This document shows, in pieces, positions 1,901 to 47,628 of a stretch of 64,000 bases of DNA. Under the pieces are notes generated by a model. The model saw only the letters and a program-made list of their open reading frames with translations, ran no database searches and was not told where the DNA came from. The stretch's first letter is position 1; the number at the start of each line of letters is the position of its first letter. The position numbers and the translations under genes were made by a program. Source of the DNA: a virus (lineage: Duplodnaviria; Heunggongvirae; Uroviricota; Caudoviricetes); the IMG/VR virus record IMGVR_UViG_3300002835_005179, positions 1 to 64,000 of that record. One strand, given 5' to 3'.

Positions 1901-3482
1901 TACAGGTGATAAGAATTATTATCTAAATCCACAAATAAAAAGATCTGGATTATCGGAAGAATACACCACAGAACAGATTCAAGAGTATGTTAAATGTTCA
2001 CAGGATCCAATATACTTTATAGAAAATTATGTAGAGATTAATTCTCTTGATAAAGGATTCGTGAAATTCAAAACACGTGGTTATCAACAAGATCTAATAG
2101 AAAAATACCATAAAAATAAAAAGAATATTGTACTTTCAAGTAGACAGAGTGGAAAAACGATTACTACTGCATCATTCATTCTTTGGTATATATTCTTTAA
2201 TCCTGATAAGAATGTTGCAATTCTAGCAAATAAAGCTGCAGTAGCAAGAGAAATTCTAGCAAGAATAGTTGCTTCTTTCGAACGAATACCATTCTTCTTA
2301 CAACCTGGTGTTAAAATTCTAAATAAAGGTTCTGTAGAATTGGGTAATTCTTCTAGAATAATTGCATCTGCAACTTCAGCATCCGCAATTCGTGGTTTTT
2401 CAGTTTCGTTACTTTATCTAGATGAATTTGGTTTCGTAGATAATGCGGAAGAATTCTTTAGATCAGTTATTCCAACAATTTCATCGGGCGAAACAACAAA
2501 AGTTATTATTTCATCTACACCAAATGGGTTGAATCTTTTCCATAAATTGTGGAAAGATGCTATAGATGGAAATAATGATTATGTACCGACAGAGATAACT
2601 TGGGATCAAGTTCCAGGAAGAGACGAATCTTGGAAGAATCTACAAATTGCGCAACTCGGAGAACATGGATTTAGACAAGAATTCGGAAATGAATTTCTTG
2701 GATCTTCGAATACTCTAATTTCTGGATATAAATTGCAATCTCTAACTTGGGAAAAACCAAAATTAGATTCTGATTCTTTAATTATTTTGGAAGAACCTAT
2801 TCAAAATCATAATTATGTAATTTCAGTAGATTCTTCTAGAGGAGTCGAAAATGATTATTCAGTTGCAATTGTTATCGATACAACACAAATTCCATATAAA
2901 ATAGTTGCAAGATTTAAAGATAATACAACTAGACCAATACTTCTACCGAATATCATTGTTGATTTGGCAAAGAAATATAATATGGCATTTTTGTTAATAG
3001 AAAGAAATACAGTAGGACAAACAGTTGCAGAATCCTGTTATTGGGATTTAGAATATGAAAATATATTCACAACTATTCCAGGAAAATCTGGACAAGAATT
3101 ACGATCATCATTTTCAAAATCAAATAAAATCGGTGTTGAAATGACTTCACAAGTGAAAAGATTGGGTACTTCTATTCTAAAAACGCTTGTTGAAGAAGAT
3201 AAGTTAATTAATTATACAGAAGATATTGTTAATGAATTATATTCATTTATTAATAAACATGGTTCTTGGGGTGGAGAAGCAGGAAAACATGATGATCTTG
3301 TTATGTCTTTAGTGTTGTTTTCTTGGGCGACAAACCAATCTTTCTTTAAAGAAATAACAAATTCTGATTTAAGAAAATCGTTTTTCGATTCACAGGAAGA
3401 ATCTGTAGAAGAAATCTATTCTTTTGCTGGAATTACTACTGGATCTGAAGAAGAAACTGCAGATAATTCTTGGTTAATTTAG
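1893..3482 (+). CDS. gp17: terminase large subunit
   Basis: Walker A (VLSSRQSGKT), Walker B (LLYLDEFGFV) and a C-terminal RNaseH-like nuclease region. Sits 5' of the sheath gene as in T4. Confidence 0.9.
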   Translation: MFNTGDKNYYLNPQIKRSGLSEEYTTEQIQEYVKCSQDPIYFIENYVEINSLDKGFVKFKTRGYQQDLIEKYHKNKKNIVLSSRQSGKTITTASFILWYIFFNPDKNVAILANKAAVAREILARIVASFERIPFFLQPGVKILNKGSVELGNSSRIIASATSASAIRGFSVSLLYLDEFGFVDNAEEFFRSVIPTISSGETTKVIISSTPNGLNLFHKLWKDAIDGNNDYVPTEITWDQVPGRDESWKNLQIAQLGEHGFRQEFGNEFLGSSNTLISGYKLQSLTWEKPKLDSDSLIILEEPIQNHNYVISVDSSRGVENDYSVAIVIDTTQIPYKIVARFKDNTTRPILLPNIIVDLAKKYNMAFLLIERNTVGQTVAESCYWDLEYENIFTTIPGKSGQELRSSFSKSNKIGVEMTSQVKRLGTSILKTLVEEDKLINYTEDIVNELYSFINKHGSWGGEAGKHDDLVMSLVLFSWATNQSFFKEITNSDLRKSFFDSQEESVEEIYSFAGITTGSEEETADNSWLI

Positions 3483-8285: not shown

Positions 8286-8705
8286 ATGGCGACAACAACT
8301 ATCTTAAGACAAGACGAAAATTCTGCAGTTGTTACTATTTCTGGTGCTGGAGCAGAAACTCTAGCATTCGTTTTACATCCAGGTGGTGCAACAGGTCCAA
8401 TCGGCGCCACTGGTTTCGCTGGAACAACAGGCGTTGGAATTGTTTCTTTAGAAAAGATAGATTGGTCTATCACAGGAACTAACAAAATCTCATTATATTT
8501 CAACGGATCAACTGATCAATTGATTGGTCATTATGATGGATCTGGTAGAATTGATTATTATAGAGATTATCAAACTAAGATTACTAATATCGCCCCAGCC
8601 ACAGATTCAACAATCTTATTAACTTCTACTACATCCGATCCATATGTTCTTGTTATGAAACTAGAAAAAACATCGGGATTTGTTAAGGTTGGACAATACT
8701 CTTAA
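8286..8705 (+). CDS. hypothetical head-associated protein with GATG collagen-like motifs
   Basis: 139 aa containing GGATGPIGATGFAGTTG, inside the head gene cluster. Confidence 0.35.
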   Translation: MATTTILRQDENSAVVTISGAGAETLAFVLHPGGATGPIGATGFAGTTGVGIVSLEKIDWSITGTNKISLYFNGSTDQLIGHYDGSGRIDYYRDYQTKITNIAPATDSTILLTSTTSDPYVLVMKLEKTSGFVKVGQYS

Positions 8706-8974
8706 TGCTTAACGAAAAAACAGTTAAGATGGGTCAGAAAATCCGCTACGATAGGGTTCGTGGCGGTAAGATTCAACGTAAGAAGATTAAATCTGCTAAA
8801 GCAGGATATAGAGTTTCTGGTAAAAAATTAGTTAGAATGAATCCCGCTGAAAAAAGAAAACGAGCAATATCTGCTAGAAAAGCGTCAAGAAAAAGAGCAG
8901 CAAAATTATCATCAATCTTAAAGAAAAGAAAGATCTCAATTAAAAAAGGTAAAAGAGCAGGAATATACAAATGA
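8705..8974 (+). CDS. highly basic small protein (Lys/Arg-rich, DNA-binding or internal-protein candidate)
   Basis: 89 aa, more than 35% K+R, immediately upstream of the gp21 protease. Confidence 0.45.
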   Translation: MLNEKTVKMGQKIRYDRVRGGKIQRKKIKSAKAGYRVSGKKLVRMNPAEKRKRAISARKASRKRAAKLSSILKKRKISIKKGKRAGIYK

Positions 8975-9612
8975 AACTATTAACAGAAGTAAATGAATTC
9001 ATAAAAATTGTTTCAGAATCTGCTGAAGGTAAACCAAAAGATTATTTTATTGAAGGTATTTTCATCCAATGCGAGAAGCCAAATAGAAATAATAGAGTAT
9101 ATAAGATGGAATATATGCAACCAGAAGTAGATCGTTATGTTGAAGAATACGTCAACAAGAATAGAGCTTTTGGTGAATTAGGTCATCCAGATAATCCTAC
9201 AATTAATCTAGATAGAGTATCGCATCTTATTACTGTTCTAGAACAAAAAGGTAATGATTATATCGGTAAAGCAAAAGTTCTAGATACACCAAACGGAAAG
9301 ATTGTTAAAGCATTTATCGATGGTGGTTGTATGTTAGGTGTTTCTACTAGAGGATTAGGTTCTCTTCAACAAGAAAAGTCTTTTTCTATGGTTCAACCAG
9401 ATTACAAAATTATGACTGCCGCAGATATTGTTGCTGATCCATCTGCGCACGAAGCATTTGTGGAAGCTGTTATGGAATCAAAAGAATGGGTTTGGAATAA
9501 TGGAATTGTGAAGGAAGTAACTATTGATTCATATAAGAAGAAGCTAACAACATCAAAAAGATTACAAGAAGATAAGATTGCCATTTTTACAGACTTTCTT
9601 TCGAGATTGTAA
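8971..9612 (+). CDS. gp21: prohead core protease
   Basis: 213 aa with GELGHPD and GVSTRGLGS motifs of the T4 gp21 (peptidase U9) family. Size and position are as in T4. Confidence 0.85.
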   Translation: MKLLTEVNEFIKIVSESAEGKPKDYFIEGIFIQCEKPNRNNRVYKMEYMQPEVDRYVEEYVNKNRAFGELGHPDNPTINLDRVSHLITVLEQKGNDYIGKAKVLDTPNGKIVKAFIDGGCMLGVSTRGLGSLQQEKSFSMVQPDYKIMTAADIVADPSAHEAFVEAVMESKEWVWNNGIVKEVTIDSYKKKLTTSKRLQEDKIAIFTDFLSRL

Positions 9613-9649: not shown

Positions 9650-10801
9650 ATGGAAAACAAACAAGATCCATTTGATTCAATCTTCGAAGGCATCGATCTT
9701 CCGGAAGATTTTGCTGCTAAGTTGAAGAAAGCATTCGACGATGCAGTTGATGAAAAATTAAAACAAGCAACTAAAGGTGTTATGAAAACTGAAGAGGAAG
9801 AGGAGATTGTTCATCTAGAATCCGAAGGTGAGATGGAAGATGATGAGGAAGAAGTTGTAGAACAAGACGAATCTAAAACATATTCTCTTGAAGATATCAG
9901 AGCACTATTAACTGATATCGATATCGTCAGATTACTACAATCTTCAGACGTAGAAAGAACAAAATTCTTAAATTCTATGCGTGCTGCAGTTACAGATCTA
10001 TCTGGCAACAGTATAGCAGAACCGTTCTTATCTCTAGTCATGAGTATTATACAAGTGATCGCAGATGATTCTAGAATTTCTACTATGATTGCAAGAGAAC
10101 TTAAAGATATGGAAACTGAGAAAAGCTCAGAAGAGCCAGCTGATAACATGAATCAAGTTAAAGTTAATGCTGAACTTGAAGTTTATGAAAATGTTATCGA
10201 ATCAGTAGATAAGTATCTAACTTATGTTGCTGAATCGTGGATCGAAGAAAACGCTCTAGCTGTTGAACAAGGTCTAAAGATTGAGATCATGGAATCTTTC
10301 TGGAATGGATTAAAGACTCTATACGTCGAAAATAATATTGTTCTACCAGAAGAAATTAATGTTGTTGAAGATCTAAATACAAAAATTGCCGATCTAGAAT
10401 CAACTCTTTCTGAGGAAAAGCAAGCATTTGCTGAAGAATTATCTAAGCAAAAGGCTCAATATGAAGAAAAGATAAACGAAGAAATTAATAGATCAATTGT
10501 ATACAAAAACAAAGCAGAAGAATCTACTAAGAAAGCTGTATTTGAATCAGTTTCAAAGGATCTATCTCTTTCACAAAAAGAAAGATTTGCGAAGTTAACA
10601 GAATCTGTAACTTATGAATCAAAGAAATCTTACGAAGAAAAGTTGAAAGATATTGTTAAGAATGCGTTCGATTCTTCTAAACCAAAGAAGAAATTGACCG
10701 AAGAATCAATGATTGAAGTATCTGAAGAAAATACAATTATTTCTGAAGATCCTATCATGAACCTTTATTCTCAAGCAATTTCTAAGAATGTCAAGTTTTA
10801 A
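9650..10801 (+). CDS. gp22: prohead core scaffold protein
   Basis: Acidic, coiled-coil-rich 383-aa ORF between the protease and the major capsid protein. Confidence 0.6.
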   Translation: MENKQDPFDSIFEGIDLPEDFAAKLKKAFDDAVDEKLKQATKGVMKTEEEEEIVHLESEGEMEDDEEEVVEQDESKTYSLEDIRALLTDIDIVRLLQSSDVERTKFLNSMRAAVTDLSGNSIAEPFLSLVMSIIQVIADDSRISTMIARELKDMETEKSSEEPADNMNQVKVNAELEVYENVIESVDKYLTYVAESWIEENALAVEQGLKIEIMESFWNGLKTLYVENNIVLPEEINVVEDLNTKIADLESTLSEEKQAFAEELSKQKAQYEEKINEEINRSIVYKNKAEESTKKAVFESVSKDLSLSQKERFAKLTESVTYESKKSYEEKLKDIVKNAFDSSKPKKKLTEESMIEVSEENTIISEDPIMNLYSQAISKNVKF

Positions 10802-37793: not shown

Positions 37794-37829
37794 GATCCTC
37801 CTGAAACTATTTATTGGTATATGTGAAAA

Positions 37830-38140: not shown

Positions 38141-38449
38141 ATTTCAATTTTTATTTATTAGTCTTCCTCTCACCAATCCAAAAGATTCAGTCTCAAATAT
38201 CAAATAATTATTTGTGCCATCATTATACCAATGTCTTGTGTTTCCCAAACCATCTCTTCTGCCGTTTCACTGAAAATGCCCATAGTCTTTTCTAATTCCT
38301 CAATAGCAATATTCTTATTTGTAATTCTATTTTTGGTAGAAAACGAATCTATAACAAGACCCGTTGTTAAATGTATTAACCTGACACCAGCTGGATTCTC
38401 ATTCAATTTTTGATCTGGTGTCAGGAAATATTCAAATGTACACTGTGTG

Positions 38450-38923
38450 TTAATCGTGTGAATATTCATCCACATCAATTTGACCATTACGATATACATT
38501 AATCTCTGCATGATCACCAAACATTTGACGAAGATCTTCATCTTCAAACATAGATAGAAGTTCGTCTACTTCATTATATGCCTTCTTTATTGAATCGATC
38601 GAATCGAAAGAAAGATCTTCAAGATCAATCTCTTTACTATATTGTTCGTTATTCAAAGTCCAGTTATCAACATGATCACAAGAGTTATTGAATCTATAAT
38701 AATCTCGATTAACACCAAATACACAAGTGTCACCATCATTGAAATAAGGTGTATATTGATTCCAAGAAAATGAATTCAATTGTGGATTGTCATTGAAGAT
38801 ATCTTTTGTGATATCACCAAATACACTCTTTGCGTTATCTCGTAACATCTTCATATGTTCGTCACGAATTACCTTAAATTCATTAATCTTTGCAATAAAT
38901 TCATTCTTAGTCATATTAATCAA
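38450..38923 (-). CDS. hypothetical protein
   Basis: 157-aa ORF. Confidence 0.45.
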   Translation of the reverse strand: MINMTKNEFIAKINEFKVIRDEHMKMLRDNAKSVFGDITKDIFNDNPQLNSFSWNQYTPYFNDGDTCVFGVNRDYYRFNNSCDHVDNWTLNNEQYSKEIDLEDLSFDSIDSIKKAYNEVDELLSMFEDEDLRQMFGDHAEINVYRNGQIDVDEYSHD

Positions 38924-42154: not shown

Positions 42155-43208
42155 GCTTCGTCTGTCAAGCGAATATGGTGTGTATTCTAAACAACACAAT
42201 CAATATCCAAATCTGTACCAATTCACTTATGATCAGATTGAATCTTCGAAGATCAAAGATCATCCGATCGTGCGAGAATCTCGTGGTATTATCCTGGATC
42301 GTGATGCCTCTTGGTCGGTAGTTGCTCGTCCTTTCGATCGATTCTTTAATTGGGGCGAGAATGTCACTGAAGTTAACTTTGATTGGTCTTCCTTTGTAGC
42401 ACAAGAAAAGATTGACGGATCATTAATGATCCTATACAATTATCTTGGTAAATGGAATGTTGCCACCAAAGGTTCTCCTGATGCGAATGGTACTATCGGT
42501 GATAATTCGTTCACATTCGCTGAGTTATTCTGGGAAACCTTCAAACAACAAATGTATTCTGTTTCTGATCTAGATCCTAGAAATACATATATGTTTGAAT
42601 TGACTTCAAAGTATAATCGTGTAGTTACTTCTCAGTTGAATAACGAAGGCAAGTTAACTCTAATTGGTGTTCGTGATAATAATACTGGTCAAGAGTTTCC
42701 AGTTTCTTTGTACAAAGATATCTTCGATGTGGTTCGATCATATGATATGAATACTATCGATGAGATCTTAATTGCAGCAAAAGAACTCGATCCTTCTAAA
42801 CAAGAAGGCTTCGTTCTAGTTGATAAGAACTATAATAGAATCAAAGTTAAGTCAGAGAAGTATGTTTTGATTCATCATCTGAATTCTGGTAACGTTCGCC
42901 GCAGCTTACTAAATCTTTGGAAATCAGGAGATTCGGAAGAGCTATTATCATATCATACGGAATTTCGAAATGAATTTAATAATTTAGATGCGTCTATTCA
43001 TTTATTATGCCAAGAAATAGACAATGGATGGTCGATGACAAAACACATCATTGATAGGAAAGAATTTGCTTTAACTGTTAATCAATACTACAAACATATT
43101 TCATCTGCCCTTTTTATGAAAAAAGATAATAAATTGAAAAATACAATAGATTATTTTAAAAATATGGATATTAAAAAATTAGAAAAAATATTAGACTTTG
43201 TTATCTGA
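42111..43208 (+). CDS. RNA ligase (Rnl1-like, KxDG nucleotidyltransferase)
   Basis: Motif I EKIDGSLM. Size of 365 aa. Co-occurs with polynucleotide kinase (pseT) in the window. Confidence 0.55.
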   Translation: MLELQKFLNTNFGDRLRLSSEYGVYSKQHNQYPNLYQFTYDQIESSKIKDHPIVRESRGIILDRDASWSVVARPFDRFFNWGENVTEVNFDWSSFVAQEKIDGSLMILYNYLGKWNVATKGSPDANGTIGDNSFTFAELFWETFKQQMYSVSDLDPRNTYMFELTSKYNRVVTSQLNNEGKLTLIGVRDNNTGQEFPVSLYKDIFDVVRSYDMNTIDEILIAAKELDPSKQEGFVLVDKNYNRIKVKSEKYVLIHHLNSGNVRRSLLNLWKSGDSEELLSYHTEFRNEFNNLDASIHLLCQEIDNGWSMTKHIIDRKEFALTVNQYYKHISSALFMKKDNKLKNTIDYFKNMDIKKLEKILDFVI

Positions 43209-44012
43209 AATACGAGAAAGACGATTATTTTTTCTAGTTTCTACCATTTGAGATTTTTGTTTCAAACTAATAATTCGTCCTGGAATAAGTAAATGATTTG
43301 TATCGTCGATATGTTCTAGATCCTTTACTTTAATAAATATATTTTTTGTCCCATCATTATACCACTTCCCTCCCTTATTATTTTTCTTATTTTTATTTTC
43401 TATCAAAGAGGCGGACCGTTTTTTCTTCGTTTCTTCAGATTGTTTTTTATTAAAAGAAGGATTTTTAGAACCCAATTTAGATTCAGACATATTTTTTTTC
43501 TGTTTATCGGTTCTTTTTTGTCCGACGACATATGTATTGCCCAATTTAGATAAACCCATTTTCTTACGGTGAATTTCAGATTTTCTTTTACCTAGTAGTG
43601 CAGCAGATATTTCGGCTTTGGTTTCTGGAGTGTGGTTCTTTCCATACCTAGGAGACTTTTCTCCAGTTTTTCCATACATAGGAGACTTTTCTCCAGACCT
43701 TTTGTCTAGTGCTTCCGGAGTGTATTTATAACCAGACACCCCTTCCCCGCCATCGGTCTTATTTCTCAGGATTCCTGTTCCTAGATCTTTTCGACCATAA
43801 AACTGTATTAGTCTTATTTCTTCGTCGAAGGCTTCTGATTCTGACAGATTTTCGAAGAGAATAGATATTCTAGAAGATTCAACAGGACGAAATCGTCTCT
43901 TACACCAGGCTCTGTTACCCTGACCTTTTCCAATATAATATGGAGTCCCATCTTCTCTTAGAAAAGCATAGACATAGAATCTGGCTGGGTCTTTATAAAT
44001 AGTTTTAGACAT
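43191..44012 (-). CDS. GIY-YIG homing endonuclease with NUMOD3 repeats
   Basis: FYVYAFL..GTPYYIGKGQGNRAW GIY-YIG motif and repeated GEKSPxYGK/NHTPETK NUMOD3-like modules. Start reset to the ATG preceded by GGGAGG. Confidence 0.8.
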   Translation of the reverse strand: MSKTIYKDPARFYVYAFLREDGTPYYIGKGQGNRAWCKRRFRPVESSRISILFENLSESEAFDEEIRLIQFYGRKDLGTGILRNKTDGGEGVSGYKYTPEALDKRSGEKSPMYGKTGEKSPRYGKNHTPETKAEISAALLGKRKSEIHRKKMGLSKLGNTYVVGQKRTDKQKKNMSESKLGSKNPSFNKKQSEETKKKRSASLIENKNKKNNKGGKWYNDGTKNIFIKVKDLEHIDDTNHLLIPGRIISLKQKSQMVETRKNNRLSRISDNKV

Positions 44013-45062: not shown

Positions 45063-46463
45063 TTAGAATTTGAAATTATCGAAGTTCTTCTTATATTTCG
45101 AAGAACCATATCCTGAATCAAATTCACCATAATTATTATCCTGATAAGGATCTTGAATACCACCTTCTCCATCAATCTGAATATCACCGATATCAAATAA
45201 TCTCATCTTAGATCTATCAATACCAACCAAGAATTTCTTATTCTTAGTCACATCATTATATCTATTCTTCAACTGTTTAATCATCAACTGACCAAGTTTT
45301 TCTAATTCTTCTGTATTAATTAGAGCAATCATGAAATCGCAAGTGGCGGCGACGCCGAAACTTTCTGCAATATCACCCATACCAGCATCAGAATCAGACG
45401 CTCCAGATCTCGTAAATTGTGATGCGGATACGATCGGAAGATTAGCTTCTACAGCAAGACCACGAACTTCTTCAGCAATAGACTTAACCAACATATAAGA
45501 ATTTACTTGACCGTTATTCTTAATTCTTGAAGAAGCACAAATATTCAAATAATCAATATAGATAATATCTGGAATAAACTTCTTCTTTAGAGCAAGTTCA
45601 TGTAGAAGATATCTGAAGTGTGATACGTTGGCTGAACCAGTTGGATATTCCTTGATAACCAACTTGCCTGGTGTTCGACTTTCTAACTTATTAATTAGTG
45701 ATAAGAATTGTTTCTTAGAAATTTGTTTTAGAGTATCTAAGGTAATATCCAATAGATTCGCATCAATTCTCTCGGCGATTCTTTCTTCAGCCATTTCACA
45801 TGTAATATACAAAACATTCTTACCATCAAGAACATTAGAAGCTGCCATATGACACATCGCCAAAGTTTTTCCAGCATTAACACCACCAAGAATTAAGTTT
45901 AGCGTTTTTCTCGGAAGTCCTCCACCAGTAATAAGATTTAAATTCTGGATATCAAAACGAATTCTCTCTTCTTTCTTATGATAAAATTCAAATCTTGTTT
46001 CTGCATCAGAAACAAAATCATGACCAACTGATGGATCGAATGTAATTGCAAGAGCTTCTTTAAGAATTTCAGGAATAGAACCTTTATCTCTAGTATCTTT
46101 TTCATCAGATATAATCTTAATAGAATCTAAGATTGCATTATGCAATGATTTTTCTTTACAAAATGATTCAGTCTGTTTGATCAAGAATTTTAAATCAGTT
46201 TGCTCATTCTTCGACCAAGAATCTAATAGATTAGATATTACTTCTGAGTCTTCAATTTTAATCTTCTTAGATTCAGAAGTCATAATCTTAATAGCTTCTA
46301 CGGAAGCTTGTTTATTATATTCTGTGACAAACGAATTAATGAATTTAAATATACTTCTATCATTATGATCCGAAAAATATTCAGACTTTAGAAAGGGTAA
46401 TACTGATCTAGTATATTCTTCGTTATGTAAGAGATTCTTTAAAACCAAATGTTCAATTTTCAT
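45063..46463 (-). CDS. gp41: replicative DNA helicase (DnaB-like)
   Basis: Walker A GGVNAGKT and the DnaB-family C-terminal domain. Start reset to ATG at 46463 (GGAGAAAACTAATTATG), because the upstream 48 codons of the track ORF lie in the repeat locus. Confidence 0.85.
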   Translation of the reverse strand: MKIEHLVLKNLLHNEEYTRSVLPFLKSEYFSDHNDRSIFKFINSFVTEYNKQASVEAIKIMTSESKKIKIEDSEVISNLLDSWSKNEQTDLKFLIKQTESFCKEKSLHNAILDSIKIISDEKDTRDKGSIPEILKEALAITFDPSVGHDFVSDAETRFEFYHKKEERIRFDIQNLNLITGGGLPRKTLNLILGGVNAGKTLAMCHMAASNVLDGKNVLYITCEMAEERIAERIDANLLDITLDTLKQISKKQFLSLINKLESRTPGKLVIKEYPTGSANVSHFRYLLHELALKKKFIPDIIYIDYLNICASSRIKNNGQVNSYMLVKSIAEEVRGLAVEANLPIVSASQFTRSGASDSDAGMGDIAESFGVAATCDFMIALINTEELEKLGQLMIKQLKNRYNDVTKNKKFLVGIDRSKMRLFDIGDIQIDGEGGIQDPYQDNNYGEFDSGYGSSKYKKNFDNFKF

Positions 46464-46896
46464 AATTAGTTTTCTCCTGTGATAACGACCAAGAATTAGA
46501 GTCTGAACCTGAGCCTGAAGAAGATAAATTTGCAGACCAAGATTCTGATTTGGGTATCTCTCCGGACCAAGACCAGGATCCCGATCTGCGTGAATTTCCA
46601 ATTCCACTCCATGATCCAGAAAATAAACGAGTCCAATATATATATTCTGATTTCTTTCTTAATTTGTGAATCATAAATTGGATGTCCCGGATTTAGAACC
46701 ATATCGATATCTACTGTCGGTAATCCATGATAGATAATGATTAGATTGGCCAGACTTAGAAGATAAGAAGATACTCGAAGAGGTTCCGCATCTATGGAGA
46801 CCGGAGAAGAACCTCTTCTTGGAATTAAATCTCAATCTAATAGATTTTCTTTTTGTTGTTAACATATTTCCATTTATCTTGAATAATCTAGAATAA

Positions 46897-47064
46897 TTAA
46901 TTTCCAGACCTAGACCAAGACCTAGACCTAGACCTAGACCAAGACTCAGACCTAGACTCAGACCTAGACCAAGACCCAGACCTAGACCTAGACCTAGACC
47001 AAGACCAAGACCAAGACCCAGACCTAGACCAAATAATTCTTTTGTAAATTGATTTCTTTATCAT
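46897..47064 (-). CDS. micro-gene B1: MIKKSIYKRIIW + (X-Ser)n
   Basis: Header ATG at 47064, open Ser-X frame, ends SGN-TAA. Confidence 0.45.
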   Translation of the reverse strand: MIKKSIYKRIIWSRSGSWSWSWSRSRSRSGSWSRSESRSESWSRSRSRSWSRSGN

Positions 47065-47068
47065 ATTT

Positions 47069-47275
47069 TTAGTTAGACCTAGACCCAGACCTAGACCTAG
47101 ACCAAGACTCAGACCTAGACCCAGACCAAGACCAAGACCCAGACCCAGACCAAGACCTAGACCTAGACCCAGACCAAGACCCAGACCCAGACCCAGACCC
47201 AGACCAAGACCAAGACCCAGACTCAGACCTAGACCTAGACCCAATATTTTTTTTGTAAATTGATTTCTTTATCAT
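47069..47275 (-). CDS. micro-gene B2: MIKKSIYKKNIG + (X-Ser)n
   Basis: 68-aa ORF from the track with the same header. Confidence 0.45.
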   Translation of the reverse strand: MIKKSIYKKNIGSRSRSESGSWSWSGSGSGSGSWSGSRSRSWSGSGSWSWSGSRSESWSRSRSGSRSN

Positions 47276-47289
47276 ATTACAATTATAAC

Positions 47290-47628
47290 TTATTTTGTAA
47301 TATTAGTCAACTGGGAATCATTTGCATGCAAAATAGCATATTCTAATATCTTCTTAATTAATTTCTTGACAATTTGAATCAGAGTTTTATCATTACTGGA
47401 TACATTATTGGGAGAGTACACAACTGTCATATCAAACGTCAATATAGAAGAATCTTCTTCTTCACAAGTTATATCTGTTATTTCTATAATAGTTTCTTTA
47501 TGTTTTCCTTCATCTAATCTCAATAATATCTTTTCGTTATTGTTGTGTTCTGTAATAAAGAACGATGCTTTCATATCTGAAAATGGTACTATCTTATATG
47601 ATTCTTCTTTTTGTTTAGTATTTTTCAT
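47290..47628 (-). CDS. hypothetical protein
   Basis: 112-aa ORF between uvsX and the repeat locus. Confidence 0.45.
   Translation of the reverse strand: MKNTKQKEESYKIVPFSDMKASFFITEHNNNEKILLRLDEGKHKETIIEITDITCEEEDSSILTFDMTVVYSPNNVSSNDKTLIQIVKKLIKKILEYAILHANDSQLTNITK

Follow-up and report, generated by a model that had tools for sequence, protein, structure and literature searches.

Genes and Features at the Locus

The window, by which we mean the whole 64,000-nucleotide stretch of phage DNA analysed here, carries on its minus strand an array of NGGTCT hexamers, hereafter locus B, that is situated between the conserved gene orf112 on its upstream side and the gene of a gp41-type replicative helicase on its downstream side (Table 1). 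The hexamer pattern was matched 124 times in the 64-kb window and not once in shuffled sequences, and its N position is occupied by A, G or T, never by C, in the window. Two open reading frames of the array, B1 and B2, are intact micro-genes, both made up of a basic leader followed by (TCT-NGG)n, which is read as serine alternating with a variable residue X. The ATG of B2 lies 4 nt past the stop codon of B1, and strain L138 lacks this second unit. As the preliminary description had stated, the two intact units share the design of the plus-strand micro-genes at locus A, and they share exactly the same leader, ATGATAAAGAAATCAATTTACAAAA, with the locus A units starting at 20612, 20859 and 21088. 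The −10 element of the promoter-like site upstream of B1 ends 7 nt ahead of the B1 ATG, so that a transcript starting from it would be leaderless or nearly so.

Between B2 and the helicase gene, two further open reading frames had been described as decayed units that retain the Ser-X alternation in spite of a lost hexamer periodicity, of which one stands up to statistical assessment. Unit B4 contains 21 serines, which fall 19 to 2 between the two phases and form 14 S-x-S pairs (p=5e-5 in an amino-acid shuffle, with the observed count reached by 0 of 20,000 DNA shuffles). Its serine codons are mixed (TCA 8, TCT 8, TCG 2, TCC 2, AGT 1), its glycines are encoded by GGA, GGC and GGT with GGG absent, and its first codons have AAGAAAGAAATCA in common with the intact leader. 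The 3' end of B4 extends 11 nt into gp41 and includes the Shine-Dalgarno motif of that gene (AGGAG). BLAST matches that initially suggested relatives of B4 vanished under composition-based statistics. The frame at 46671–46865 is Ser-rich and aperiodic, with its 15 serines distributed 9 versus 6 over the two phases and only 3 S-x-S pairs (p=0.67), and no relatives were found beyond near-identical strains; since only its position and its basic N-terminus speak for a decayed unit, this assignment is doubtful. The 460 nt covering both frames are identical in all six close contigs, and the whole locus B block is missing from the next relatives L032, L139 and L140, where the orf112 homologue directly adjoins gp41 with no micro-genes in between, which makes a dN/dS analysis of the diverged units impossible.

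At locus A, the stop codon of the decayed unit 0 overlaps the ATG of the first intact unit (ATGA), and the truncated fourth unit is located 42 nt upstream of rIIA, with rIIA and rIIB directly downstream of the locus. The preliminary description contained neither unit 0, nor the 88-aa gene upstream of locus A, nor the promoter-like site ahead of B1. Rfam models detected no RNA family at locus A or locus B.

Table 1. Features of locus A, locus B and their surroundings (window coordinates).
Feature	Position	Strand	Description
Promoter-like site of the Sm-like gene	19968-19996
Sm/LSm-fold protein gene	20017-20283	+	88 aa; usual first gene of the cassette
Intrinsic-terminator-like hairpin	20286-20310	+	11-bp stem, then T run; between Sm-like gene and array
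Unit 0, locus A	20318-20425	+	Decayed; ..KYVYKRTCKNIASRSGSNSSGWS..; DNA-level homology to leader
Three intact micro-genes, locus A	20422-20607, 20612-20854, 20859-21083	+
Truncated fourth unit, locus A	21088-21123	+	Leader only, MIKKSIYKRII*
rIIA	21166 (start)
gp41-type DnaB-like replicative helicase	45063-46463	-	DnaB_C 7e-18, DnaB N-terminal domain
Unit B4	46453-46674	-	Diverged S-X micro-gene, 73 aa; mixed Ser and Gly codons
ORF 46671-46865	46671-46865	-	64 aa (MLTTKRKSIRLRF...); Ser-rich, not Ser-periodic
Unit B2	46897-47064	-	Intact micro-gene, 55 aa; MIKKSIYKRIIW + (S-X)n
Hexamer array, locus B	46906-47241	-	TRF: period 6, 55.8 copies
Unit B1	47069-47275	-	Intact micro-gene, 68 aa; MIKKSIYKKNIG + (S-[R/G/W/E])n + N
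Promoter-like site, sigma-70-type	47282-47310	-	TTGACT-17-TATAAT, 11/12 matches
orf112	47290-47628	-	Conserved gene upstream of locus B

A Probable Family of Translated Ser-X Peptides

The reading frame of such arrays was assessed on 72 non-redundant examples from loci that had been retrieved through the Sm-like protein alone. An in-frame ATG is found at most 63 nt upstream of the array for the S-X frame in 47 of the 72, compared to 0 and 10 for the other frames, and arrays read in the S-X frame reach the next stop after a median of 1 codon past their end, compared to about 15 codons for the other frames. Two alternative products were dismissed, namely the Gly-Leu frame and the reverse Arg-Pro frame with N as wobble base, both of which turn into GR, GA or GP with other serine codons and lack frame-specific starts and stops. 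Across phages, (S-[G/W/R])n is written with five different serine codons; in the 23 arrays devoid of GGTCT, serine is encoded by TCG (435), AGC (127), TCC (38) and TCA (27), and X is NGG in 611 of 619 codons. Over 85 loci the X position is shared by Gly (0.38), Trp (0.32) and Arg (0.30), and these shares do not track genome GC (Trp rho −0.04, Arg rho −0.13). The codons themselves follow it: AGG and CGG replace each other with genome GC (rho −0.55 and +0.57, p ~1e-8), and the main serine codon moves from TCT to TCG.

Within the arrays TCT occupies 88 % of the serine positions, departures from the serine codon are about equally frequent at codon positions 1, 2 and 3 (71, 103 and 69), and synonymous variants of the X codons are rare. 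As no classical dN/dS signal is thus available inside the arrays, it is the comparison of different lineages that provides evidence for the peptide. Together with the five serine codons, the GC-independent X shares and the starts and stops confined to the S-X frame support the earlier claim that the peptide, and not the DNA repeat alone, appears to be under selection, and we are highly confident that the arrays encode a translated S-X peptide family. X remains NGG in approximately 87–99 % of cases even where synonymous Gly or Arg codons would suit the genome GC better, Gly being almost never GGC, GGT or GGA in GC-rich phages either, and an RNA-level constraint may thus be at work.

The peptides contain 12 % Trp and 12 % Arg at a median net charge of +10, and inspection of the listed sequences revealed neither a signal peptide nor a hydrophobic segment. 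For B1, AF2 returned a pLDDT of 55 without secondary structure, which is weak evidence as the prediction started from a single sequence. A Shine-Dalgarno-like motif precedes just 37 of 169 units. Searches of the micro-proteins against Pfam and PHROGs gave no match, and a phmmer search of 5.8 billion proteins produced 2643 word candidates, none of which passed, probably due to the composition filter. Literature searches with peptide strings, the hexamer and general terms retrieved nothing relevant. Two further candidates were set aside: T7-type primase sites (GGGTC, TGGTC) or 2-tetrad G-quadruplexes, given that lineages with NGGAGC hexamers contain no GTC, and long repeat regions of the Campylobacter-phage type, with no DNA match of the window in 50,697 phage records and a window polymerase only ~50 % identical to cyanomyophage polymerases.

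The Sm-like Partner and the Two-Gene Cassette

S-X arrays are present in many uncultured phages, usually immediately beside an Sm-like gene. This association was recovered from both directions. Among 117 loci retrieved by the hexamer pattern alone, at least 31 contain the Sm-like gene, which usually ends 20–260 nt upstream of the array, and an S-X reading frame is present in 68 of 80 viral loci and 12 of 16 MAG loci retrieved by the Sm-like protein alone. The S-X frame mostly starts within ~30 nt of the Sm-like stop codon; elsewhere further units or a gap intervene. A distant branch has the two genes in the opposite order, still adjacent to each other. Clustering of all open reading frames within 3 kb at 97 loci revealed no third conserved gene, and the Sm-like protein is the sole conserved neighbour, with no LanM-type, YcaO or radical SAM partner that would point to a RiPP precursor array. 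About half of the arrays with upstream sequence, locus B included, have no Sm-like gene immediately upstream. Taken together, the S-X arrays and the Sm-like gene are very probably functionally linked.

The 88-aa protein displays the Sm fold, in which a helix at the N-terminus precedes a strongly bent antiparallel beta-sheet of five strands. It has no match in Pfam at E <= 0.1, LSM and Hfq included, none of its 120 listed homologues carries a precomputed Pfam domain, and a PDB sequence search gave no match. Since the Pfam match and an obvious Sm2 Arg-Gly motif are both lacking, RNA binding by this protein stays putative. The family falls into 516 clusters at 50 % identity and generally consists of single domains of ~85–92 aa; tandem fusions of two Sm-like domains occur in some members (P0121, P0127, P0153) and are the sole hint at ring assembly. 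The carriers of the cassette range in GC from 0.3 to 0.65 and in length from contigs of ~10 kb to T4-like genomes of ~150 kb, and the conserved pair occurs in hundreds of uncultured phage lineages. It is without a Pfam or PHROG family, a named product or a mention in the searchable literature. A conserved cassette with an Sm-fold gene, which alters what the arrays are, was not part of the preliminary description.

These data bear on two other ways of explaining the arrays. The hexamers might be a selfish or neutral microsatellite expansion in short reading frames, or a mere sink for ribosomes and rare-codon tRNAs; they are indeed extremely homogeneous, the number of units differs among close strains, the window phage encodes both a tmRNA and a suppressor tRNA, and NGG codons are rare in AT-rich hosts. 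However, leader, S-X core and immediate stop recur between GC 0.3 and 0.65 with different codons and stable amino-acid shares, and the adjacency to one protein family is kept even where the gene order is reversed, making this explanation highly unlikely.

Alternatively, the RNA could be the functional product, in which case (NGG-NNN)n with its GG every 6 nt would act as a multivalent ligand, sponge or autoregulatory site for a ring-forming Sm-like protein and translation would be secondary. GG at hexamer positions 2–3 is the only nucleotide feature invariant across the serine-codon lineages, consistent with the near-exclusive use of NGG described above, Sm-fold proteins typically bind repeated single-stranded RNA motifs, and the array RNA forms much more stable structures than shuffled controls do (z = −10.4). 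On the other hand, the three-base spacers are always serine codons (TCN or AGC) without a common nucleotide pattern, start, basic leader and stop go with the S-X frame alone, and amino-acid shares stay fixed while synonymous codons track GC. Moreover, B4 lost NGG and kept the serine periodicity, and in the window a terminator hairpin parts the Sm-like gene from the array. We therefore regard an RNA product as improbable.

The Inverted Arrangement of Loci A and B

Loci A (20422–21123, plus strand) and B are mutually inverted and bracket the segment from rIIA to gp41, in agreement with the preliminary description, which had gone on to propose that the arrays act as DNA inverted repeats through which recombination flips the 26-kb segment into isomers. 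The arrays are exactly identical over up to 66 nt and share ~85–89 % identity across 160–400 nt, the window phage encodes a UvsX recombinase, and the downstream genes would remain co-oriented with an array after inversion. One contig, L118 from the freshwater sample ERZ27247984, even contains a predicted junction, leading from the Sm-like gene via a hybrid unit and units 3 and 4 to gp41. Its hybrid unit, however, comprises just 6 hexamers compared to ~25–35 in real units, as is typical of de Bruijn-graph collapse, and L118 looks like a repeat-collapsed chimera. Every other informative contig shows the window order, approximately 15 independent ones in all, about 10 of them reading Sm-like gene, array, rIIA and 5 reading orf112, array, gp41, and a 29-kb contig that starts within the locus A array extends past locus B in this order. 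The reciprocal junction from orf112 through an array to rIIA was not present among the contigs shown for the orf112 and rIIA look-ups. The locus thus has the inverted homologous flanks of an invertible segment, but both orientations with both junctions were not found in this comparison of short-read assemblies, in which rare isomers may escape detection. As most cassette phages have single or direct-orientation arrays, inversion cannot be the function of the family, and we consider it very unlikely to be the role of the arrays here.

Proposed Function and Comparison with Known Systems

The explanation we favour, and to which we assign a moderate probability, is that of a widespread two-gene cassette composed of translated S-X micro-genes and an Sm-fold protein, with locus B as an orphan array. 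Locus B would accordingly be an extra micro-gene array that entered this phage lineage by insertion between orf112 and the helicase gene and that is served by its own near-consensus early promoter, while locus A would supply the Sm/LSm-fold member of the cassette in this window. Each unit would yield a peptide of ~55–75 aa with a Lys/Arg-rich leader of 9–12 residues, followed by serine at every second position and roughly equal parts of Gly, Trp and Arg at the others; such peptides would be strongly cationic and are predicted to be disordered. The arrays probably evolve by hexamer slippage and by whole units being duplicated or lost, and the unit number varies between strains. All hexamers of an array would have one serine codon plus xGG in common, and as NGG is the only codon box in which a single base switches between Gly, Trp and Arg, N is left as the single free position. 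As a side effect, gp41 may draw transcription and translation from the promoter gained here and from the overlap between its start and the last unit.

What the cassette does is addressed here by analogy. Early in infection, the peptides may possibly cooperate with the Sm-like protein as multivalent cofactors that bind or coat RNA, an RNA-binding or condensing role that we put forward tentatively and that recalls the Arg/Gly-rich tails of eukaryotic Sm proteins as well as Arg/Ser domains. More speculative still is a minimal phage ribonucleoprotein or condensate system, in which an Sm-fold ring and separately encoded sticker-and-spacer peptides would coat, protect or sequester RNA in the early phase of infection. 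Trp and Arg would be the stickers and Ser and Gly the spacers, and the NGG hexamers would allow the sticker density to be retuned by single-base changes and slippage. If true, the cassette would represent a bacterial-virus counterpart of RG-tailed Sm proteins and SR proteins, and its micro-proteins a new class of hyper-evolvable viral products.

Runs of SRSRS recall the RS domains found in SR proteins, and in their abundance of Trp and Arg and their high positive charge the peptides are similar to Trp/Arg antimicrobial peptides. The S-X peptides nevertheless differ from both in having no RRM domain, secretion signal or amphipathic helix, and the strict alternation of serine with Gly, Trp and Arg at ~1:1:1 is a feature of neither. 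Charge and Trp content fit an antimicrobial peptide, but inspection of the listed sequences gave no sign of a secreted or exported product. By the same properties, the peptides might act on membranes and modulate envelope integrity, lysis timing or superinfection exclusion, all the more as the serine alternation would place all Trp and Arg residues on one face of an extended chain and rIIA and rIIB follow directly on locus A. This is very unlikely in view of the missing signal peptide and hydrophobic segment, of a conserved partner that has an Sm fold and is no membrane protein, and of the fact that rII genes are not nearby in most cassette phages.

Among known systems, the Sm/LSm/Hfq superfamily, including archaeal SmAP1 (PDB 1loj), AF-Sm2 (PDB 1ljo), eukaryotic LSm/Sm proteins and bacterial Hfq, is closest to the 88-aa protein, which differs from it by the absence of a Pfam LSM/Hfq match and of an Sm2-type Arg-Gly motif and by a long insert between strands. 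In addition, the low-complexity partner has a gene of its own here, often in several copies, and is Trp/Ser-rich rather than RG/RGG. PDB 3by7, an Sm-like protein of putative cyanophage origin, shares only 8 % identity with the 88-aa protein and comes far behind the Sm proteins of archaea and eukaryotes in the ranking; we know of no repeat-peptide partner described for it.

[quoted passage not shown] In T4 itself, GoF is encoded a few kb upstream of rIIA. The window offers a parallel in its Sm-like gene upstream of rIIA and its orphan array directly upstream of gene 41, which is positional only. A homologous relationship between the Sm-like protein and T4 GoF or MotB.1 was dismissed, as hhalign gave a probability of 0.2 % against both and aligned 3–11 columns. 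The GoF family has two domains, an LSm-like N-terminal one and a C-terminal one joined by a linker, in 119–141 aa and comes without repeat micro-genes, whereas the single-domain proteins of the cassette do not show this architecture.

Near-perfect repeats with fast turnover and a unit length divisible by 3, located within reading frames and giving rise to disorder-prone segments, have been described for Borg elements, where they are reported to be of diverse kinds and to have originated separately, each within a larger protein of these archaeal elements (PMC9879509). The arrays of the window likewise consist of a near-perfect repeat in a reading frame with a unit length divisible by 3 and a product predicted to be disordered. 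Unlike in the Borg elements, one specific repeat (serine codon plus NGG) makes up nearly the whole of a dedicated micro-protein, which recurs in numerous phages together with a single partner gene.

The cassette is a candidate phage RNA-handling system and suggests the testable idea that Sm-type proteins may work together with low-complexity Arg/Trp peptides in organisms other than eukaryotes, and its arrays provide a clear natural example of selection on peptide composition atop microsatellite dynamics. Gene callers often annotate the arrays in the wrong (Gly-Leu) frame. For annotation, the cassette shows that ‘simple repeats’ of this sort are genes, at which phage contigs frequently break.

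Architecture and conservation of the micro-genes

The array ahead of rIIA on the plus strand (locus A, 20422–21123) and that ahead of gp41, the DnaB-like helicase gene, on the minus strand (locus B) are built of hexamers, each a serine codon plus NGG, whose micro-genes encode serine alternating with glycine, tryptophan or arginine (S-X). At locus B a period-6 repeat of 55.8 copies covers 46906–47241 (−). Allowing one mismatch, the window contains 124 matches to GGTCTNGGTCTNGGTCT, all of them within 20453–21077 (+) or 46906–47241 (−), compared to none in 100 shuffles. A 25-nt leader, ATGATAAAGAAATCAATTTACAAAA, opens both locus B reading frames as well as the locus A units at 20612, 20859 and 21088, which bears out the preliminary description of two intact locus B units of locus A design. 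A promoter-like TTGACT-17-TATAAT (11/12 matches) ends 7 nt ahead of the first locus B ATG.

Neighboring units are separated by TAA-AAAT-ATG, a spacing that shifts the frame by +1 at every unit, so that the Gly-Leu frame of one unit reads into the leader of the next. Public gene calls often report this frame run together with the following unit, as ORFs of 115 aa and 146 aa, in place of the S-X micro-genes, for example at 10385–10732 of contig L128 and equivalent loci and at 46897–47244 (−) of the window. Many contigs terminate within arrays, showing that the arrays break assemblies.

Micro-genes and the Sm-like gene at the two loci
Feature	Position	Strand	Remarks
Intact ORF (B1)	47069–47275	−	68 aa
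Intact ORF (B2)	46897–47064	−	55 aa
Doubtful unit	46671–46865	−	Ser-rich, no periodicity
Diverged S-X ORF (B4)	46453–46674	−	Ser periodicity, partial leader match
Sm-like gene	20017–20283	+	88 aa, just upstream of locus A
Decayed micro-gene (MFYEKYVYKRTCKNIASRSGSNSSGWSVATWTPTS)	20318–20425	+	between Sm-like gene terminator and first intact locus A unit

Serine alternation had also been read in two decayed units of locus B, a claim that holds for B4 and fails for the doubtful unit. The 21 serines of B4 divide 19 versus 2 between the phases and form 14 S-x-S pairs (p=5e-5 by amino-acid shuffle; observed count reached in 0 of 20,000 DNA shuffles). They are encoded by TCA (8), TCT (8), TCG (2), TCC (2) and AGT (1), next to the Gly codons GGA, GGC and GGT, and the intact leader has AAGAAAGAAATCA in common with the 5′ end of B4. 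B4 overlaps the start of gp41 and harbors that gene's Shine-Dalgarno sequence; we regard it as an S-X gene that has genuinely diverged. The 15 serines of the doubtful unit divide 9 versus 6 with 3 S-x-S pairs (p=0.67), and no relatives were found outside near-identical strains. A decayed unit at locus A, whose stop overlaps the ATG of the first intact unit there, had been overlooked.

An exact five-hexamer pattern scan of IMG/VR matched more than 117 contigs; among the matches listed, GC content ranges from 0.27 to 0.73 and about half are arrays with mixed N. In the S-X frame the latter open with an ATG and a short basic leader, continue as (S-[R/G/W])n and close with a stop, often forming tandem micro-genes. 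Many other matches are unrelated simple repeats, for example pure (SW)n in membrane-protein-like ORFs, (SR)n or (SG)n, and L005, L048, L097 and other single-N matches, including some giant-virus contigs, lie outside the family.

Within arrays the serine codon is uniform: TCT fills 88 % of Ser positions, and the exceptions are spread about evenly over the three codon positions, identifying the arrays as homogenized DNA repeats devoid of an internal synonymous signal. What decides the matter is comparison across lineages. At loci obtained via the neighboring protein rather than via the repeat, 23 arrays lack any GGTCT and consist of NGGTCG, NGGAGC, NGGTCC or NGGTCA hexamers (TCG 435, AGC 127, TCC 38, TCA 27), while their X codons are still GGG, TGG, CGG and AGG. 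The predicted product is the same everywhere, in the S-X frame only. An in-frame ATG precedes the array in 47/72 cases in this frame versus 0/72 and 10/72 in the others, and the next stop follows after a median of 1 codon versus ~15. Across 85 loci, Trp, Gly and Arg account for 0.32, 0.38 and 0.30 of X positions; the Trp and Arg shares are uncorrelated with genome GC (rho −0.04 and −0.13), whereas the choice of AGG (rho −0.55) or CGG (+0.57) tracks it (p ~1e-8) and the main Ser codon moves from TCT to TCG. Comparison between lineages shows the conserved object to be the predicted peptide and its composition. The proposal that selection acts on the peptide and not just on the DNA repeat is thus sustained by varying Ser codons, GC-independent X shares and frame-specific starts and stops. 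Median length is 66 aa among the 169 distinct units, whose leaders have 9–12 residues and whose cores consist of 43 % Ser, 15 % Gly, 12 % Arg and 12 % Trp; the median net charge is +10. AF2 predicted no structure for B1 (pLDDT 55).

NGG occupies ~87–99 % of X positions even where GGC or CGC suits the genome better, a retention that speaks for the main rival explanation, an additional RNA-level constraint on NGG. We consider such a constraint less likely and infer that NGG is the outcome of homogenization plus a need for Trp. Homogenization would make all hexamers of one array share their last five bases and, TGG being the sole Trp codon, an array needing Trp must then be xGG, in which single changes at N switch between Gly, Trp and Arg. 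B4, which escaped homogenization, lost NGG and kept its Ser periodicity, fits the homogenization reading.

The Sm-like partner gene

Genomic neighborhoods show S-X arrays to be linked to a gene of predicted Sm fold. Homologues of the Sm-like protein are present at ≥31 of the 117 loci obtained by the hexamer pattern alone, usually ending 20–260 nt ahead of the first unit. The protein by itself retrieved 80 viral loci; an S-X ORF lies downstream in 68 of them and 3 further loci are borderline, with contig ends accounting for most of the rest. The S-X ORF mostly starts within ~30 nt of the Sm-like stop; elsewhere the two are separated by further units or by a gap. MAG contigs obtained by the protein carry an S-X ORF in 12 of 16 cases. 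One distant branch has its S-X units, which bear a 35-aa N-terminal domain, upstream of the Sm-like gene, the genes still being adjacent. This reversed cassette is seen at ~2500–3000 in the Myxococcales MAG contigs L311 and L313, where the domain (MTDTIIALREQAQTDPDARAVLEDACLEAGVRV...) replaces the short basic leader. No other conserved neighbor family was found around the cassette loci.

All 287 homologues (65–99 % identity) are named 'hypothetical' and none has a Pfam domain; among 1.84 billion representative library proteins, the family amounts to 516 clusters at 50 % identity. Deposited phage records gave a single match, in an uncultured genome where the gene is unannotated. Some family members (P0121, P0127 and P0153) are tandem fusions with two Sm-like domains per polypeptide, which would fit assembly into rings. 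T4 GoF and MotB.1, described as the first phage LSm-like family (Kim et al. 2025, PMC12152347), were rejected as relatives as they show no sequence relationship.

Locus B and the rIIA–gp41 segment

The homologue of orf112, the gene upstream of locus B, directly abuts gp41 in the relatives L032, L139 and L140 (gp41 54–77 % identical), which marks the block 46464–47289 as a lineage-specific insertion. It holds no Sm-like gene, that of the window being 26 kb away at locus A; in other phages, roughly every second array is an orphan of this kind. The repeats evidently turn over rapidly. Locus B has two units in the window, L128–L130 and L135 and one in L138. The length of locus A is 883 nt in most strains and in the window, but 654–665 nt in L316 and L119.

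The suggested 26-kb inversion by recombination between the loci found no backing. Exact identity between the inverted arrays is at most 66 nt, and the window order recurs at both junctions: Sm-like gene, array, rIIA in L119, L121, L124, L316–L319, L322, L323 and L325, and orf112, array, gp41 in L128, L129, L130, L135 and L138. One 29,366-bp contig (L130 = L320) runs from inside the locus A array via rIIA, gp41 and locus B to orf112 and uvsX. Only in L118 is the Sm-like side linked to that of gp41, by a unit of 6 hexamers compared to ~25–35 in real units; this contig looks like a repeat-collapsed chimera. No reciprocal junction was found among the contigs listed for orf112 and rIIA. We conclude that inversion isomers are unproven and would be rare if existing, the contigs being short-read assemblies unable to settle the question.

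Sequence comparison establishes the coding architecture, the conserved peptide composition and the locus B insertion with its promoter-like site. RNA may be the joint target of the S-X peptides and the Sm-like protein, as suggested by the peptides' cationic charge and aromatic 'stickers' and by a partner fold typical of RNA chaperones. The promoter-like site and the overlap of B4 with the gp41 start might also feed expression into the helicase gene. In T4, a GoF mutant stabilizes gene 41 mRNA (Kim et al. 2025, PMC12152347), which is a suggestive parallel to the orphan array before gp41, not evidence. No Pfam or PHROG family was found for the S-X micro-proteins or the Sm-like protein, and the searchable literature gave no paper on the former or on their coupling to an Sm-fold protein; within these limits the cassette appears undescribed.

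Source phage

The window stems from a distant T4-like myophage with a GC content of ~0.33 and a DNA polymerase ~50 % identical to those of cyanomyophages; none of 50,697 phage records matched the window at the nucleotide level. The tmRNA of this phage at 37828–38207 (−) is of the permuted, two-piece alphaproteobacterial type (Rfam 93–100 bits), which suggests an alphaproteobacterial host; several related contigs originate from freshwater samples. For the adjacent ORF 38200–38547 (−), the counterpart product in related contigs has a weak RF-1-domain match. A tRNA with anticodon CUA (amber-suppressor type) at 24146–24220 (+) is labeled tRNA-Pyl by ARAGORN and is likewise a tRNA in Rfam. A NUMOD3-type homing-endonuclease gene at 43191–44012 (−) separates orf270 from the RNA ligase gene, as in L128–L135; strain L118 lacks it and carries different sequence at that place (8689–9249). 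In the relative L140 (452–3461), an intein-like insert splits the DNA polymerase gene at the DTDS motif (..DTDSVVGDTKIY.. ..ILVHNSCYLNL..).
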